From the NCBI RefSeq assembly GCF_057098645.1, contig NZ_CM169472.1: DNA of 64,000 bases, one strand, 5' to 3'. Positions within the stretch are counted from its first letter, which is position 1; each line of letters starts with the position of its first letter. The position numbers and the translations under genes are program-made. Shown here in pieces: positions 2,338 to 41,089 of this stretch. The notes under the pieces are model-generated. The model made no database searches and was not told the DNA's origin. It saw only the letters and a list, made by a program, of their open reading frames with translations.

Positions 2338-2991
2338 TTATATCCCTTCTTCACTCTCTTTTTTCGCTTCTGCCTTCTCGATTTCACGATACCAGCGCGG
2401 ATGGTGTTTCTTCGCCCAGCGACGGCTCACCTTCCCTTCGATCATCCCTTTAATCGATCCTTTCACCCAGAATGCCATATACATATGGATCAGGATGGCG
2501 TGGATCAGGATGATACCCGCAGCCGCGTGGATCAGCAGGCTGTAGCGAACAACCTGCATCGGGAAGTACTGCGCAAAGTACGGACGCCAGATAATCACCC
2601 CGGTCACCAGCAGCACGAAAATCATGCTCATGATCGACCAGAACATCATCTTTTGCCCGGCGTTGTACTTACCGACATCCGCCACTTTATGCTCATTGCC
2701 TTTTAATACTTCGACAATGTTTAACAGCCACGGAATATCTTTCTTATCCGGGATGTTGTGATGCACAAAACGCACAAACATAAACATCAGTGCGACGAAA
2801 ATCGCAATGCCGAAGAATGGGTGCAAAATGCGTCCCATCTGCGGCGTACCGAAGGTTTGCGTCAGCCATTGCAGCGTCGGGAAGAAGAACGAAATCCCGG
2901 ACAGCGCCACCAGGAAGAAGCAAATCACCACGGTCCAGTGACAGGCGCGATCAATAAATTTGGTGCGCACAATCATTTTCGACTTACTCAT
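2338..2991 (-). CDS. fdnI: Formate dehydrogenase-N gamma (cytochrome b556) subunit
   Basis: 217-aa membrane protein from internal ATG (2991); overlaps fdnH stop; operon context. Confidence 0.9.
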
Positions 2992-3868
2992 GATGATCCT
3001 CCTCGTCATCGTCCACTTCCTTATTCGGGCCAATACCGATGTAGTGGAAAATCAACCCGGCAAAAGTGGCAATAAAGCCAGCCGCTGCCAGCGGTTTCAA
3101 CGCGCCTTTCCACAGGCTTACCGAGGTGTCGATCTTCGGATCTTTCGGCAGACTGTGATACAGCTCCGGCTGATCGGCGTGATGCAGCACGTACATAACG
3201 TGCGTACCACCGACCCCTTCCGGGTTGTAGACGCCAGCATGTTCGTAACCACGCGCTTTCAGTTTCGCCACGCGCTGTTCCGCCAGCTCCAGCATCTCCT
3301 TCTTGGTTCCGAAGTGGATAGCCCCGGTCGGACAGGTTTTCACACAAGCCGGTTCCTGGCCGACGCTGACGCGATCGACGCAGAGCGTGCATTTATATAC
3401 CCGGTTATCCTCTTTGTTGAGGCGCGGAATATTAAACGGACACCCGGCAATGCAGTAACCACAGCCGATGCAGTTTTCCGACTGGAAATCGACAATCCCG
3501 TTAGCGTACTGAATGATTGCACCGGCAGACGGGCACGCCTTCAGGCAGCCCGGATCTTCACAGTGCATACAGCCATCTTTACGGATCAGCCACTCCAGCT
3601 TGCCGTTCTGTTCGGTTTCGCTAAAGCGCATCACCGTCCAGGACTTGGCGCTCAGATCGGCGGGGTTATCGTAAACCCCGACGCAGTGCCCCACTTCATC
3701 ACGGATGTCGTTCCACTCCGAACACGCCACCTGACAGGCTTTACAGCCGATACAGGTGGAAACGTCGATAAGTTTTGCGACTTCTGCTTTGTAATCACGC
3801 ACCTGAGAAGGCGGCGTGATGGAGTTAGTTGCGGACCTTTTGATAATGTCCTGCGTTTCCATAGCCAT
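2984..3868 (-). CDS. fdnH: Formate dehydrogenase-N beta (4Fe-4S) subunit
   Basis: 294 aa, multiple CxxCxxCxxxCP ferredoxin motifs. Confidence 0.9.
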
Positions 3869-3880
3869 CTGTTCGCCCCC

Positions 3881-6800
3881 TTACGCCTTCTCGATGTTGA
3901 CTAAGAACGCTTTATATTCCGGCGTTTGCGAGTTTGCATCACCGACATTCGGCGTCAGAGTGTTAGCGATATAACCTTTACGCGCGACACCCTCAAAGCC
4001 CCAGTGGATTGGAATACCCACCGTTTCAACCTGCTGACCATTTACATTCAGCGGTTTCAGACGACGCGTTACCACAGCCACCGCGCGGATAAAGCCACGC
4101 TTGCTTGAGACAGTGACACGATCGCCATTATTAATGCCTTTCGCCGCCGCCAGCGTTTCGCTGATTTCCACAAACTGTTCCGGCTGAGCAATTGCGTTGA
4201 GCAATGCGTGCTTGGTCCAGGTGTGGAAGTGCTCGGTCAGACGATAGGTCGTACCCACATACGGGAACTGCTCTTTTTTACCCATCCGCAGTGCGTCTTG
4301 TTCATACAGACGAACAACCGGGTTAGACACCACGTTCGGATGCAGCGGGTTAGTGCCCAGTGGCGTTTCAATCGGCTCGTAGTGTTCCGGGAACGGACCT
4401 TCCGCCATTTTGTTGATGGCAAACAGGCGTCCCATCCCTTCCGGCTGCATGATAAACGGCCCGGTTGGCGTACCCGGTGCGGCATTGCCGAAGTCAGGAA
4501 TATCGTTACCCGTCCACTTGCTGCCGTTCCACTGGATCAGCATCCGTTTCGGATCCCACGGTTTACCGTTGATATCCGCCGAAGCACGGTTGTACAGCAC
4601 GCGACGGTTGAGCGGCCACGCCCAAGCCCATCCCAGCGTATTCCCCAGACCGGACGGGTCGGAGTTATCGAGGTTAGCCATCTGGTTGCCCTGCTCTGTC
4701 CAGCTACCGGTGTAGATCCAGCAAGAAGATGCGGTTGTACCGTCATCACGCAGATGCGCAAAGCTACTCAGCAACTGACCTTTCTTCGCAATCAGCACGC
4801 CATTAGCATCATAGAGATCTTCCAGCGCATAGCCGTTGTTCTCTTTAGCTACTTCGTCAGATTGCGGTTCGTGCGGCTGCTTGTAGTTCCAGCTCATCTT
4901 CATCAGCGGTTCTACGCCTTTACCACCTTCGGCCTGGTACAGCTCGCGCAGGTGATGGTAGATACCCGCCAGAATTTCACCGTCGTTACGCGCTTCGCCC
5001 GGCGCATCCTGACCTTTCCAGTGCCACTGCAGCCAGCGACCGGAGTTAGCAATAGAACCATCTTCTTCAGCAAAGCAGGTCGAAGGCAGACGGAATACTT
5101 CAGTCTGAATAGACGCCGGATCGACATCGTTCGACTCGCCGTGGTTCTGCCAGAAGGTTGAGGTTTCAGTCACCAGCGGATCGATAACCACCATGTACTT
5201 CAGCTTGCTCAGGCAGCTCACCACTTTGTTTTTGTCCGGGAAGGACGCAACCGGGTTAAAGCCCTGGCAGAAATAACCGGTGACTTTGCCTTCATCCATC
5301 ATGTTGAAATACTTGATGACGTCGTAGGTCTGGTCCCACTTCGGCAGCCAGTCATAGCCCCAGTTGTTCTCTTTCTGCGCGGCATCGCCATAGAAAGATT
5401 TCATCAGGCTAACGAAGAACTTCGGATAGTTGCTCCAGTAGTTCACCTGACCAGCCAGCGTCGCTTTCGGCGTGTTCGCTTCCAGATACGACTGCAAATC
5501 AACCTGTTTTTCTGACGGCAGCGTCAGATAACCTGGCAGGCTGGTAGAGAGCAGACCTAAGTCAGTCAGACCCTGAATGTTGGAGTGACCACGCAATGCA
5601 TTCACGCCGCCACCGGCCATACCCATGTTACCGAGCAGCAACTGGATCATCGCCATAATACGGATGTTCTGCGCACCCACGGTGTGCTGCGTCCAGCCCA
5701 GCGCGTACAGGAAGGTGGTTGTGCGATCCGGTGCGCTGGTGGAGGCCAGCACTTCACACACTTTCAGGAAGTCGGCTTTTGGCGTACCACAGATGTTTTC
5801 AACAACGTCCGGCGTGTAGCGGGAAACGTGCGCTTTCAGCAGGTTCCACACACAGCGCGGATGAGTCAGTGTTTCATCGCGTTTCGCATAGCCGTTTTCA
5901 TCGAACTGATAGTTCCAGGACGATTTATCGTATTGCCGTTTTTCAGCGTCGTAGCCGCTGAACAGACCGTCTTCGAAAGCAAAATCATCACGCACCAGCA
6001 GGCTGGCGTTGGTGTAATGCTTAACGTATTCGGCGTTGATTTTGTCGTTTTCGATCAGGTAGCGCAAAACGCCAGACAGGAACGTAATGTCCGTACCGGA
6101 ACGAATAGGTGCGTAAATATCCGCCACAGAAGCGGTACGCGTAAAACGGGGATCGACAACGATCAAGGTTGCATCGTTGTTGTTTTTCGCTTCCATCGCC
6201 CAGCGGAAACCGACGGGATGCGCTTCAGCAGCGTTACCGCCCATTACCATTACGACGTTAGCGTTTTTGATATCCACCCAGTGGTTGGTCATCGCACCGC
6301 GACCAAATGTTGGAGCAAGACTTGCTACCGTTGGTCCGTGTCAGACGCGCGCCTGGTTGTCTACCGCCAGCATCCCGAGGGAGCGGGCAAATTTCTGGGT
6401 CAGCATCCCGGTTTCGTTGCTGGCACCGGAAGCACACAGCATACCGGTAGAAAGCCAACGGTTTACCGTTACGCCCTGCTCGTTCTTTTCAATAAAGTTA
6501 GCGTCACGGTCAGCTTTCATCAGCTTCGCAATACGGGAGAATGCTTCTTCCCAGCTAATGCGCTGCCATTTGTCAGAACCTAGCGCACGATATTCCGGGT
6601 AGCGCAGACGGTTTTCGCTGTTGACGTAATCCAGCAAACCGGCCCCTTTCGGGCACAGCGCACCACGGCTTACCGGATGATCCGGGTCACCTTCAATGTG
6701 ATAAATCGCTTCTCTGGCGTTTTTCGCGCCATCACCCAGGCTATACATCAATAGCCCGCAACCTACGGAACAGTATGTGCAGGTGTTACGGATCTCTTTA

Positions 6801-36824: not shown

Positions 36825-37004
36825 AATGCTCTCCTGTGCTTTTGGCATGAATCCATCAATAGTAGCAGGCTCACGGGATTGGTTTTGTTTGCAGCCGTCA
36901 CATCCCCTCTGCAACACGCAATAATTTCATCGAGGAATCCGTTGCTTCGGGCTGTTTTCGATAGTATTGATAACATCATCATCATTATTTTATTGAGGCC
37001 AGAC

Positions 37005-37523
37005 ATGTCCATCCGTTTTGCCCGCAAAGCCGACTGTGCTGCCATTGCGGAAATTTATAACCACGCCGTGTTGTATACGGCGGCTATCTGGAATGACCAA
37101 ACGGTGGATGCAGATAACCGCATTGCCTGGTTTGAAGCGCGGACCATAGCAGGTTATCCGGTGCTGGTAAGTGAAGAAGATGGCGTAGTGACGGGATATG
37201 CCTCGTTTGGCGACTGGCGTAGTTTCGATGGTTTTCGCCATACCGTGGAACATTCGGTTTATGTCCATCCCGATCATCAGGGCAAAGGTCTGGGGCGTAA
37301 ATTGTTAAGCCGATTGATTGATGAAGCGCGGGATTGCGGGAAGCATGTCATGGTCGCCGGGATCGAATCGCAAAATCAGGCCTCGCTGCATCTGCACCAG
37401 TCGCTGGGATTTGTCGTCACCGCACAAATGCCGCAGGTGGGCACTAAATTTGGGCGCTGGCTGGATCTGACATTTATGCAGTTGCAACTCGACGAACGCA
37501 CTGAACCGGACGCGATTGGATGA
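37005..37523 (+). CDS. mnaT: GNAT N-acyltransferase
   Basis: 172 aa from ATG 37005. Confidence 0.85.
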   Translation: MSIRFARKADCAAIAEIYNHAVLYTAAIWNDQTVDADNRIAWFEARTIAGYPVLVSEEDGVVTGYASFGDWRSFDGFRHTVEHSVYVHPDHQGKGLGRKLLSRLIDEARDCGKHVMVAGIESQNQASLHLHQSLGFVVTAQMPQVGTKFGRWLDLTFMQLQLDERTEPDAIG

Positions 37524-37969
37524 ATCAGTCGCTCACCCTTGCCTTTTTGATTGCCGCCGGAATTGGTCTGGTAGTCCAGAACACGCTGATGGTGCGCATC
37601 ACCCAGACCTCCTCTACCATTCTCATCGCCATGTTGCTGAACTCACTGGTGGGGATTGTGCTCTTTGTTTCTATTTTATGGTTTAAACAAGGTATGGCGG
37701 GGTTTGGCGAACTGGTGTCCAGCGTGCGCTGGTGGACACTTATACCTGGCTTGCTGGGATCGTTTTTTGTCTTCGCCAGTATCAGCGGATATCAGAATGT
37801 GGGAGCGGCGACAACTATTGCAGTACTGGTCGCCAGCCAGCTGATTGGCGGTCTGGTTCTGGATATCTTCCGCAGTCATGGCGTACCACTACGGGCGTTG
37901 TTCGGCCCAATTTGTGGCGCAATTTTACTTGTGGTTGGCGCCTGGTTGGTAGCCAGACGCTCATTTTAA
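37520..37969 (+). CDS. ydcZ: DMT-like small membrane protein
   Basis: 149 aa; ATGA overlap with mnaT. Confidence 0.85.
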   Translation: MNQSLTLAFLIAAGIGLVVQNTLMVRITQTSSTILIAMLLNSLVGIVLFVSILWFKQGMAGFGELVSSVRWWTLIPGLLGSFFVFASISGYQNVGAATTIAVLVASQLIGGLVLDIFRSHGVPLRALFGPICGAILLVVGAWLVARRSF

Positions 37970-38203
37970 TCACAGGATGGTGCCGCCTTTGGTTAACTGT
38001 TCATGGCGCGCTTCCATATCTTCTTTATGCTTGCGACCGTGATGAGCAATAGCGGTGCGCAAACGCTGCTGCTGGGTGTAGCGATCTTCCCGACTTAACT
38101 CCGCGTCATCGCTCAGGGCGATTAATAATTCGTTCATATGGGCAATGACGCTCTCTTCAATCGCGGCATCCACGCGCGCGATGACTTCATCCAGATGCGA
38201 CAT
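37970..38203 (-). CDS. ydcY: Small protein of unknown function
   Basis: 77 aa; synteny. Confidence 0.8.
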   Translation of the reverse strand: MSHLDEVIARVDAAIEESVIAHMNELLIALSDDAELSREDRYTQQQRLRTAIAHHGRKHKEDMEARHEQLTKGGTIL

Positions 38204-38288
38204 ACTTTCTCCTTAGCCACTTGTGAAATTTATCGATTCATCCAAATGATATAAGTCTGCGTGGTGCCGTCAAGCCAGTGAGTAAGAT

Positions 38289-38462
38289 TTAAAACAGTGA
38301 AAACAACAGCGCCACCGGGAAACTCATCGGCCATGTTGCCCCCACCAGAAAGGCGCTTAAGAAACGGATGCGTTTCTTATCGTGAGAAAGAAACCAGGTG
38401 ATAAGAAATGCGATTGCTGCCATAACCGCATAAAAAACAAGCATGTGTTGATAGAGAGACAT
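38289..38462 (-). CDS. ortT: Small membrane toxin OrtT (GhoT-like), 57 aa
   Basis: Internal ATG at 38462; two hydrophobic helices. Confidence 0.75.
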   Translation of the reverse strand: MSLYQHMLVFYAVMAAIAFLITWFLSHDKKRIRFLSAFLVGATWPMSFPVALLFSLF

Positions 38463-38656
38463 GTACGGGCGTCCAGCCAGATGAATAAAACGCGCGCAAA
38501 TATGCGTCATTTTTTGACGTGCATCAAGTTTTTTAACCGGTTTGAGAAAAAAACATCAAACAGCAACTTGCCCTTATCCATCTTCAGAATGAGTATTATT
38601 GCGGATTTTCTTAACCCGTACTATACACATAGGGGCAATGATAAAAGGTGGCAAAA

Positions 38657-38752
38657 ATGAATGTTTCCAGTAGAACTGTAGTACTGATAAATGTCTTTGC
38701 TGCTGTTGGTTTGTTTACTCTTATCTCTATGAGATTTGGCTGGTTTATTTGA
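38657..38752 (+). CDS. yncL: Small hydrophobic protein, 31 aa
   Basis: ATG preceded by AAGGTGG at optimal spacing; single TM helix; recalled as a known E. coli small protein at this locus. Confidence 0.5.
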   Translation: MNVSSRTVVLINVFAAVGLFTLISMRFGWFI

Positions 38753-38774
38753 TGTAGTGATTTTGCACGCAGCA

Positions 38775-38809
38775 CGTACTGTCAGAGAAATCAGTGCTCT
38801 GACAGTACG
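38775..38809. terminator. Strong hairpin, 13-bp perfect stem CGTACTGTCAGAG-N9-CTCTGACAGTACG, downstream of patD
   Basis: Perfect inverted repeat 40 bp after patD stop. Confidence 0.5.
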
Positions 38810-38848
38810 CAAGATCATCTCATACTCTTACGATCTGCAATATTATCC

Positions 38849-40273
38849 TTAATGTTTAACCATGACGTGGCGGACGACGGTGTAATCCTCCAGCCCATAA
38901 AGTGACATATCCTTGCCGTAACCAGAAAGTTTCTGCCCACCGTGCGGCATTTCACTTACCAGCATGAAATGGGTATTGACCCAGGTACAACCATATTGCA
39001 GCCGTGCGCTGATGCGATGCGCCCTGCCCACATCTTTCGTCCATACCGAAGATGCAAGTCCGTACTGGCTGTCATTCGCCCAGTTTACCACCTGTTCTTC
39101 GTTGTCGAAGAGCGTAACACTCACTACTGGACCAAATACCTCTTTTTGCACGATGGCATCGTCCTGTAATGCGCCAGCCAGCAGCGTCGGCGCATAGTAA
39201 TAGCCATTACCCTTGCGCTTTTCACCGCCAGTGATCACTTTGATGTGCCCTGTCGCTTTCGCCTCTTCTACTGCCTTGCTGACGCGTTCGAGATGCGCCA
39301 GCGAGCTTAAAGGTCCAAGCTCCGTAGACTCGTCATCCGGCGCACCAGATTTTAACGTTGCCACTGCAGCACCGAGTTTTTCCACCAGCGTATCGTAAAT
39401 GCCTTTTTGCGCGTAGATCCGACAAGCCGCAGTACAATCCTGTCCGGCATTGTAATAGCCAAATGTACGTACACCTTCGACCACTGCTTCAATATCCGCA
39501 TCATCAAAAACAATCACTGGCGCTTTGCCACCAAGTTCCATATGAGTACGCTTAATGGACGGCGCAGTATGGCTGATGATGTGTTCCCCAGTGGCGATAG
39601 AGCCCGTCAGCGACACCATCCGCACTTTGGGATGACCGGTCAGCGGATCGCCCACCGTTTTGCCTCTGCCAAACAGCACATTAATCACGCCTGCCGGGAA
39701 GATATCTTTCGCCAGCTCTGCCAACTTCAACGCGGTCAGCGGGGTAATTTCTGATGGTTTAAGCACTACGCAGTTCCCTGCCGCCAGCGCCGGAGCCAGT
39801 TTCCACGCTGCCATCATCAGCGGATAATTCCACGGTGCGATAGAAGCCACGCCCCCCAACGGATCGCGACGGATCATCGAAGTATGACCTTCAAGATATT
39901 CACCTGCCGCCAGACCATTCAGACAGCGCGCCGCACCCGCGAAAAAGCGAAAAACATCGACAATCGCCGGGATTTCATCATTGAACGCACTATGCAGCGG
40001 TTTGCCACAATTACGGGACTCCAGTTCGGCAAAAACCTGACCATTTTCTTCGATAACATCAGCCAGTTTCAGCAGACATTCCGCACGCACTTTCGGCGTG
40101 GTTTGCCCCCATTCGGCAAATGCTGCATCTGCCGCGCGCACAGCAGCATCGACCTGCTCTGCGGATGCCTCGGCAATCTCCAGTAAAACGTCCCCCGTTG
40201 CCGGATTATAGACAGGCTGTTTTTCCCCTTCGCCACTAACCAGTTCTCCGTTAATCAGTAAATTATGTTGCAT
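38849..40273 (-). CDS. patD: Gamma-aminobutyraldehyde dehydrogenase
   Basis: 474 aa; aldehyde dehydrogenase catalytic Cys/Glu motifs. Confidence 0.9.
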
Positions 40274-40294
40274 AGCATTTTCCTGTATCAGTGG

Positions 40295-41089
40295 TTATTG
40301 ACCATTGTCGCCTTCGCGGGTTAGCCACCAGGCCCCCAGGATCGGCAAGGTTGTTACCAACATAACCAGCAGTGCCACCACGTTGGTTACCGATACATCA
40401 CGCGGTCGCCCAAGCTGATTGAGCAACCACAACGGTAACGTTCGTTCATGACCTGCCGTAAAGGTCGTAACGATGATTTCATCGAACGACAAGGCAAACG
40501 CCAGCATTCCTCCTGCCAGTAACGCCGAACTGAGATTCGGCAACACTACGTAGCGGAAGGTTTGCCAGCCATTGGCCCCAAGATCCATTGACGCCTCAAC
40601 CAGACTCCATGAGGTGCGGCGAAAACGGGCGATGACATTGTTAAACACCACAACTACACAAAAAGTCGCATGACCGACCACGATGGTGAAAAATCCCGGC
40701 TCCAGATTGATGGTTTTAAAGGCGGTTAATAACGCCAGACCAGTGACAATGCCCGGCAGCGCAATGGGCAGCAGCAGTAACAGCGAAATGGCGTTTTTGC
40801 CGAAAAAGTCTCGTCGCCACAGCGCGGCAGCTGCCAGCGTCCCTAACACCAGCGCCATTAATGTCGCCAGCGCCGCCACTTTAAGTGACAGTGTCACGGC
40901 ATCAAGAATATCACTACGCTGTGCTGCCACGCTAAACCAGCGCAGCGTCAGGCCCTGCGGTGGAAAACTAAACGCCGCATCTTCAGTGTTAAACGCATAG
41001 GCGGCGATTATCAGGATGGGAAAATGTAGGAAAACAACGCCGCCCCAGGCCGCCAGTTTGAGGAAAAACGGTGCGCGTTCAGAGTGCAT
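40295..41089 (-). CDS. ydcV: ABC transporter permease
   Basis: 264 aa; operon with ydcSTU. Confidence 0.9.

Follow-up and report, generated by a model that had tools for sequence, protein, structure and literature searches.

The short stretch of DNA between yncL and patD in Escherichia coli raises a question that can be put simply: to which of these two convergent genes does the long perfect hairpin between them belong, and what does it do for the transcript that carries it? We have considered this question in a window of 64,000 nucleotides (contig NZ_CM169472.1 of the RefSeq assembly GCF_057098645.1), and all the positions given below are counted from the first letter of this window. Our best explanation, to which we give a probability of roughly 75%, is that the hairpin is the protective 3' stem-loop of a Rho-terminated yncL mRNA, and neither a canonical terminator nor one that both genes share.

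The locus and its annotation

The chromosome that holds the window is of the E. coli O145:H28 type, and the 751 bases round the locus are 100% identical to O145:H28 chromosomes. The ortT-yncL locus was found in 5415 of 5426 complete E. coli genomes, and it is a well-studied one, with its essentials already annotated and published. RefSeq/PGAP names all four genes in it: ydcY, ortT ('orphan toxin OrtT'), yncL ('stress response membrane protein YncL') and patD, which correspond to b1446, b1445, b4598 and b1444 in K-12 MG1655, where the gene set is the same. Over 611 bases, the alignment to K-12 is gap-free and contains four differences, three of them in the ortT-yncL spacer and one changing residue F13 of YncL to V, a residue also present at this site in other Escherichia, Citrobacter and Salmonella sequences.

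On the minus strand, ortT (also ydcX; 38289-38462) encodes a 57-aa orphan membrane toxin of the GhoT/OrtT family, and on the plus strand yncL (38657-38752) encodes a 31-aa stress-response small membrane protein. The two genes are divergent, with their start codons 194 bp apart, and yncL runs towards patD (ydcW; 38849-40273, minus strand), the gene of a gamma-aminobutyraldehyde dehydrogenase. All the elements listed in the preliminary description of this DNA are present where it had placed them, accurate to the base. It had also identified both small genes correctly, as their profile matches are far above the cut-offs: OrtT gives 96.9 bits against Pfam PF10753 (Toxin_GhoT_OrtT; cut-off 22.1), with residues 4-57 covering positions 1-55 of the 55 in the profile, and YncL gives 72.5 bits against the NCBIfam equivalog NF000537 (cut-off 35), with residues 1-30 on positions 1-30 of 30. 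Its remark that genes of this kind are missed by size cutoffs does not hold at this locus, where RefSeq/PGAP names the two of them. Regarding structured RNAs, Rfam gave no family on positions 37000-40500 at a permissive threshold, and none on the Salmonella, Citrobacter and long-allele loci at the gathering threshold.

Two small membrane proteins with separate controls

In K-12, the GhoT homologue OrtT is toxic, causing membrane damage and a fall in ATP, and it is induced during the stringent response (Islam, Benedik & Wood 2015, PMC4344625). The same work found no antitoxin for it, since YdcY, GhoS, the flanking intergenic RNA and a genomic library all failed to neutralise the toxin (PMC4344625), and among the annotated neighbours of ortT in the window genome and in K-12 there is no ghoS-like gene. 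To compare the locus among relatives we used 80 loci from species-representative genomes, anchored on OrtT, a sample that covers yncL where it lies beside ortT. The 57-codon ortT frame, which encodes a small hydrophobic protein, is kept in 81 of 81 loci. Two further candidates within or around this gene were rejected. A 73-codon extended version, which would start at an in-frame upstream ATG at 38510, is interrupted by stops in 44 of 80 loci and is not conserved. A 9-bp perfect hairpin inside the gene (38358-38379) reaches at least 8 pairs in just 6 of 81 sequences, and we discarded it because on average 6.2 of the 9 pairs already arise when the KKR-I-RFL peptide is recoded at random with synonymous codons.

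For yncL, the coding sequence argues for a translated gene. All of the 25 distinct nucleotide versions have 31 codons, the variable sites number 9, 6 and 27 at codon positions 1, 2 and 3, and the codon differences are 2660 synonymous versus 1146 non-synonymous, which is the substitution pattern of a frame under purifying selection. As for the translation check that had been proposed for this ORF, YncL is reported as a synthesised membrane protein: the work of Hemm and colleagues (2008/2010), as cited in PMC12542507 and PMC5437024, counts it among the small membrane proteins. Its synthesis is induced in minimal medium, upon heat shock and in stationary phase, and its overproduction leads to a depolarised membrane and a condensed nucleoid (PMC12542507). 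YncL is also cleaved in vivo by RseP.

Upstream of yncL, we identified a putative promoter of the sigma-S type (38599-38627, plus strand), with a -35-like TTGCGG (38599-38604), a 17-nt spacer, a C at -13 (38621) and the -10 element TATACA (38622-38627). The ACTATAC and TTGCGG segments show little or no variation in Escherichia, Citrobacter, Salmonella and Intestinirhabdus, and a genomic SELEX peak of the sigma-S holoenzyme has been placed in the yncL/ydcX spacer (PMC5493296). Transcription of yncL would start at this promoter. The Shine-Dalgarno sequence AAGGTGG (38645-38651, plus strand) lies 5 nt before the ATG at 38657, and its GGTGG and the ATG are invariant in 12 of 12 aligned loci. On the side of ortT, the spacer holds an FNR-type box, TTGACGTGCATCAA (38514-38527), the sole match in the window, which overlaps a sigma-70-like -35 of ortT and is conserved as TTGAY-N4-RTCAA in 12 of 12 aligned loci. 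It is the same site that was predicted under an FNR ChIP-chip peak at ydcX (PMC1802558).

These data bear on the idea that ortT and yncL form a cluster. They are indeed divergent neighbours in three genera, and both encode small, membrane-disturbing, stress-responsive proteins, with separate regulatory inputs. The word overstates the link between them, as yncL is missing beside ortT in more than 50 of the 80 loci. We found yncL beside ortT in Escherichia, Citrobacter, Salmonella and Intestinirhabdus, with a diverged form in Pluralibacter, and in the 80 loci it was absent from that position in Enterobacter, Kosakonia, Lelliottia, Leclercia, Pantoea and others. Nothing at the locus indicates that the two genes form a toxin-antitoxin pair or an operon. 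We would regard ortT and yncL as independently regulated divergent genes, the former probably through an FNR-bound site in the spacer and the latter from its sigma-S-type promoter. The products of both genes depolarise or damage the membrane.

A perfect hairpin and a mapped 3' end

The 3' UTR of yncL contains a 13-bp perfect stem with a 9-nt loop (38775-38809, plus strand), whose arms (38775-38787 and 38797-38809) are 100% complementary. It is separated from the yncL stop by 22 nt and from the patD stop (38849) by 39 nt. This inverted repeat, singled out in the preliminary description, is present and non-random: every other perfect short-range inverted repeat in the 64 kb is shorter, a search that tolerates 3 mismatches finds no second match in the window, and 100 shuffles yield none at all. 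Its predicted fold has -21.6 kcal/mol on the plus strand (z = -5.5) and -22.5 kcal/mol on the minus strand (z = -5.8). No U-tract follows it on either strand (1 U in the first 8 nt past the stem on the yncL strand, 3 on the patD strand), and a terminator scan makes no call.

The proposal that this hairpin marks the 3' end of a transcript can be checked against published Term-seq data. Adams 2021 (supplementary file 1) lists a 3' end at K-12 position 1517039, minus strand, which the gap-free alignment carries to 38812 on the plus strand of the window, the third base past the stem. A steady-state 3' end thus maps where the proposal had put it, on the yncL strand. It is supported by 75,265 reads in LB at OD 0.4, and by 536,300 and 433,399 reads on the two later sheets of the table (Adams 2021), which by the order of the file caption are LB OD 2.0 and M63 glucose. 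This rise in reads fits the reported pattern of YncL induction. The table labels the end as 'antisense to patD' and not as yncL, which we infer to result from its distance of 60 nt from the yncL stop. On the patD strand, no 3' end near the hairpin is listed in the three conditions (there is no plus-strand K-12 entry at 15170xx), although this is weak evidence.

Further along the yncL strand, 286 nt downstream of 38812, lies the peak of a bicyclomycin-sensitive region of Rho termination (39098; K-12 1516753, minus strand), antisense within patD, with a Rho score of 16.6 and p = 5e-21 (Adams 2021, supplementary file 2). This score is based on 800-nt windows and gives no position for the loading of Rho. 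A candidate for such a loading (rut) region is the C-rich, G-poor tract CAAGATCATCTCATACTCTTACG directly past the stem (38810-38832, plus strand). Taking together the 14-26 nt past the stem in 23 sequences from related loci, we counted 167 C versus 43 G (C:G = 3.9), compared with 96 C and 147 G before the stem, and the tract carries a conserved GATCTTCCCAC-like motif. None of the 23 sequences has at least 5 U in the first 8 nt past the stem. Over the 80-300 nt downstream, the excess of C over G expected as a rut signature is unremarkable, with values of 1.3-1.8 that fall at the 68th percentile of the window bins. We propose that the tract directly past the stem would act as the rut site.

Conservation of the stem among relatives

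In every yncL from Escherichia, Citrobacter and Salmonella, a strong stem-loop of -18 to -31 kcal/mol is found some 20-45 nt past the stop codon. We aligned 23 distinct 3' UTRs from these three genera. RNAalifold keeps a core stem of 10 bp in 23 of 23 sequences, with double-sided changes at 4 of the core pairs. When the outer pairs seen in Escherichia are included, the stem has 15 pairs, 83.5% of the cells are paired (35-52% in slid controls), double-sided changes occur at 8 of the 15 pairs, and the covariation score is 0.222 versus 0.124 in shuffles, a value reached by 0 of 500 of them. The outer pairs of Escherichia illustrate this well, as they come as CGTAC/GTACG, CGCAC/GTGCG, CATAC/GTATG and CACAC/GTGTG. 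Between genera the arms change and the pairing is kept, with loops of 3-9 nt. Structural selection acts on the stem across the three genera, and the stem stays linked to yncL.

This behaviour is that of an RNA stem and not of an operator, and it makes it highly improbable that the palindrome acts as DNA, whether by binding a dimeric protein or as a repetitive or mobile (REP-like) element lying after yncL by chance: a perfect 13-bp palindrome with a 9-bp spacer and an insertion hotspot 40 bp away, at the patD stop codon, would suit such a role, and against it stand the single copy of the element (1 in the window; 5412 places in 5412 E. coli records), the lack of a match to any Rfam or repeat family, and the RNA 3' end that maps to the palindrome.

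Two exceptions show that the protective-stem design is not universal. The yncL of Intestinirhabdus has no strong stem, and the diverged yncL of Pluralibacter is followed instead by a canonical terminator, made of an A-tract, a hairpin and a T-tract, from which we conclude that the two designs of 3' end are interchangeable in evolution. We also asked whether the pairing itself indicates the strand on which the stem works, by comparing the pairs that become G-U on one strand and C-A on the other. This indicator was rejected as uninformative: pairing is no less stable on the patD strand, and is slightly better there in 17 of 23 sequences, and so the asymmetry of pairing does not favour the yncL strand.

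The yncL-patD junction

As the hairpin lies between convergent genes, 22 nt from one stop codon and 39 nt from the other, and is equally stable on both strands, one could argue that it is a bidirectional terminator common to yncL and patD. The element would not even need to be self-sufficient, since termination could come about through head-on collisions of polymerases, a model in which the element itself does not have to terminate (bioRxiv 2022.10.23.513370). Besides, in the short arrangement present in the window there is no other hairpin after patD. The absence of a patD-strand 3' end in three conditions, next to a very strong end on the yncL strand, speaks against this explanation, as does the lack of the pair of A-tract and U-tract. 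The pair patD-yncL is moreover listed as a convergent excludon with overlapping transcripts (PMC12288877), which means read-through.

More telling is what happens when the two genes are separated. In 1162 of 5412 E. coli genomes (21%), the yncL-patD stretch is only 80-95% identical. These genomes carry between the hairpin and patD an AT-rich cassette of ~1.33 kb, with a gene for a CatB-related O-acetyltransferase. In this long arrangement the identical hairpin is still found directly after yncL, and patD has a hairpin and T-run of its own. Loci of the C. freundii complex hold other DNA between yncL and patD, and again the stem stays beside yncL; in all, it is kept by yncL with patD 1.3-2.3 kb away or with a different convergent neighbour. 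In species without yncL, the hairpins found after patD are unrelated, either GC-rich or REP-like. Based on this comparison, the hairpin belongs to yncL and is not common to patD. The preliminary description had placed it both after the small ORF and just downstream of patD, and as positions both statements are right; the 3' ends on the yncL strand only and the linkage to yncL assign it to the former gene. A shared terminator is in our opinion unlikely, even though it remains the best of the alternatives that we weighed.

The cassette lies at the stop codon of patD and is flanked by an imperfect 20-nt direct repeat. In Salmonella, C. amalonaticus, C. sedlakii and E. whittamii, patD is adjacent to yncL, and for this reason the short arrangement probably came first, with the cassette inserted later at this codon. 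The opposite possibility, that the short arrangement arose by deletion, was rejected after this outgroup comparison. Insertions recur at the patD stop codon, and within E. coli this hotspot is polymorphic.

A proposed route to the mature 3' end

We propose that the sigma-S-type promoter would give rise to a short and abundant yncL message of ~180 nt, the counterpart of the RNA of the Salmonella orthologue. That RNA (STnc1110/STM14_1932) was first catalogued as a sigma-S-dependent 'sRNA' of 195 nt, a discrete transcript. Since no U-tract follows the stem, RNA polymerase would read through the hairpin. Rho would then probably load on the conserved C-rich tract and terminate transcription within the next few hundred nt, antisense to patD. 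Finally, 3'-to-5' exonucleases would shorten the tail until they meet the base of the stem, so that a precise and stable end is left 3 nt past it. The end at 38812 would in this way be the product of exonuclease trimming, and the stem would stabilise the yncL mRNA. Termination or pausing induced by the hairpin may also contribute at 38812.

An endonuclease could produce the same end, for instance RNase III acting on a duplex of yncL and patD transcripts, or RNase E. The abundance of the yncL mRNA is altered in RNase E and/or RNase III mutants, a change that northern blots bear out (PMC3082872), the listing of patD-yncL as a convergent excludon would provide the duplex, and Salmonella STnc1110 shows an extra band of 120 nt that was called possibly processed. 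Nonetheless, the mapped end follows the base of a conserved stem by 3 nt, as has been described for protected ends. The end is a strong one both in exponential LB and in minimal glucose, with no patD-strand transcripts ending nearby, and the stem covaries in species where the antisense partner is a different one, as would be expected of a structural block. Hence, we consider cleavage by an endonuclease quite improbable as the origin of the 38812 end, and trimming up to a protective stem-loop the better account of it.

Implications

Much of this is already known: RefSeq names both genes, papers have been devoted to them, and a public Term-seq table lists the transcript end at the hairpin. What we add is minor: the assignment of this 3' end to yncL, the evidence that the stem covaries and stays with yncL, the conserved C-rich tract that follows it, which fits a model of Rho and a protective hairpin, and the insertion polymorphism at the patD stop codon within E. 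coli. Taken together, yncL illustrates in textbook fashion how the mRNA of a small protein can be built like an sRNA.

A more speculative reading, which we hold to be improbable, is that the short arrangement, in which patD has no terminator of its own, works as a regulated excludon and that the yncL/STnc1110 RNA has a separate regulatory role. If this were true, strong transcription of yncL by sigma-S in stationary phase or minimal medium would continue past the stem and run antisense into patD, limited by Rho. The expression of patD, a gene of putrescine catabolism, would be lowered, and the 21% of E. coli with the CatB-like insertion would be insulated from this effect. Regarding the RNA itself, the yncL mRNA has been found as a RIL-seq/TRIC-seq partner of RprA and KilS, and given these partners a regulatory role of such an abundant RNA might exist.

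Comparison with known systems

The closest relative of the window locus is that of K-12. There, ortT has the same coding sequence and the same neighbours (ydcY, yncL and patD), with no difference in the gene itself, and it is the three substitutions in the ortT-yncL spacer that set the window apart. The yncL of K-12 likewise has the same Shine-Dalgarno sequence, start codon and 3' hairpin, and differs by one residue, F13V. In comparison with a type I toxin-antitoxin locus, the results for a neutralising RNA in the flanking intergenic regions of ortT were negative (PMC4344625), and there is no Rfam family in the region.

As to the hairpin, REP/BIME elements are present in many copies per genome, in contrast to the one copy per E. 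coli genome found here. Bidirectional terminators carry the 3' ends of both convergent transcripts, whereas for this hairpin the yncL-strand end alone is reported, which is again weak evidence. An intrinsic terminator is similar in having a stable, G+C-containing stem-loop at the 3' end of the transcript, in the 3' UTR; it differs in its U-tract of ~7-8 nt, found here on neither strand, and the end at +3 is outside any U-tract. Protective 3' stem-loops on Rho-dependent transcripts were reportedly hypothesised by Peters et al. The class described by Dar & Sorek 2018 (PMC6061677) has a precise 3' end after a stable stem, no U-tract, more C than G and rut sites downstream, and trimming by PNPase/RNase II. 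The yncL stem is unusually long and perfect (13 bp) and is not a REP element, and the role of PNPase/RNase II would apply to it by analogy. It has in common with the class a stable stem, an end immediately after it, no U-tract, an excess of C over G downstream, and a bicyclomycin-sensitive region further on.

Upstream region and start codon of ortT

In the ORF listing, ortT, the gene of an orphan membrane toxin, appears as a 73-aa ORF starting from an ATG at 38510 on the minus strand, which would add the segment 38463-38510 to the annotated gene. We rejected this longer ORF because the extension is interrupted by stops in 44 of the 80 related loci and by frame-breaking indels in the alignment. 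On this sequence comparison, translation of ortT begins at the annotated start, which gives the 57-aa protein. The Term-seq data of Adams 2021 place a weak 3′ end ahead of the ortT coding sequence, at 38494 on the minus strand and 32 nt from its ATG (848 reads, LB OD 0.4), with an intrinsic-terminator score of 3.18 and outside any Rho region. Adjoining this 3′ end is a conserved ACGCATATTTGCGCGCGT-TTTATT element. The 38494 end could belong to an attenuator, or it could be the end of a transcript that starts further upstream.

The spacer between ortT and yncL also contains an FNR-type palindrome, TTGACGTGCATCAA (38514-38527), overlapping the sigma-70-like -35 of ortT. The pattern TTGAY-N4-RTCAA is kept in 12 out of 12 aligned loci, covering four genera, and the palindrome is the site predicted under the FNR ChIP-chip peak at ydcX, another name of ortT (Grainger 2007, PMC1802558). 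In UPEC exposed to nitric oxide, ydcX increases 11.85-fold. Taken together, the site, the ChIP-chip peak and the nitric oxide response would be compatible with FNR acting as a repressor of this toxin gene.

Features within the ortT and ydcY coding sequences

Inside the ortT coding sequence, positions 38358-38379 form a perfect 9-bp hairpin closed by a 4-nt loop. It is not conserved, with at least 8 pairs kept in only 6 of 81 sequences, and the codons of the KKR-I-RFL peptide account for it: recoded at random with synonymous codons, this peptide gives an average of 6.2 of the 9 pairs. Regarding the neighbouring gene ydcY (37970-38203, minus strand), RefSeq record NZ_CP028379, which is 100% identical, carries a pseudogene flag (‘missing C-terminus’). 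The ORF in the window has the full 77 aa, with a Pfam DUF2526 match over residues 1-77 of 77, and the flag looks like an annotation artefact.

The yncL 3′ UTR and its surroundings

In about 21% of complete E. coli genomes, the yncL hairpin is separated from patD by an AT-rich cassette, approximately 1.33 kb long, that encodes a CatB-related O-acetyltransferase. This insertion hotspot lies at the patD stop (38845-38855 in the window; 2600-3956 in locus L083). An imperfect 20-nt direct repeat, of which the stop itself is part, borders the cassette on both sides. Genomes of the C. freundii complex have other DNA at the same spot.

The yncL hairpin can be lengthened, across a 9-nt internal loop, by an outer stem formed by GUGAUUUUGC and GCAAGAUCAU (38759-38816, plus strand). 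This outer stem is found on the yncL strand only, with an MFE of -29.7 kcal/mol for the 96-nt 3′ UTR, and is just partially retained in other Escherichia. Because its 3′ half is past the mapped 3′ end at 38812, it can form only in read-through transcripts.

Outside the window, the design of the yncL 3′ end is also seen in ynhF, which likewise encodes a very small protein; its 3′ end maps to K-12 position 1737422 (minus strand) and has a very high count of 650,709 reads (Adams 2021, supplementary file 1). There too, the stem (CGAGGGAG...CTCCCTCG) leads into a C-rich tail, CATCTCCTTCC, without a U-tract. The ynhF case hints that a stem with a C-rich tail in place of a U-tract may recur among abundant small-protein mRNAs.
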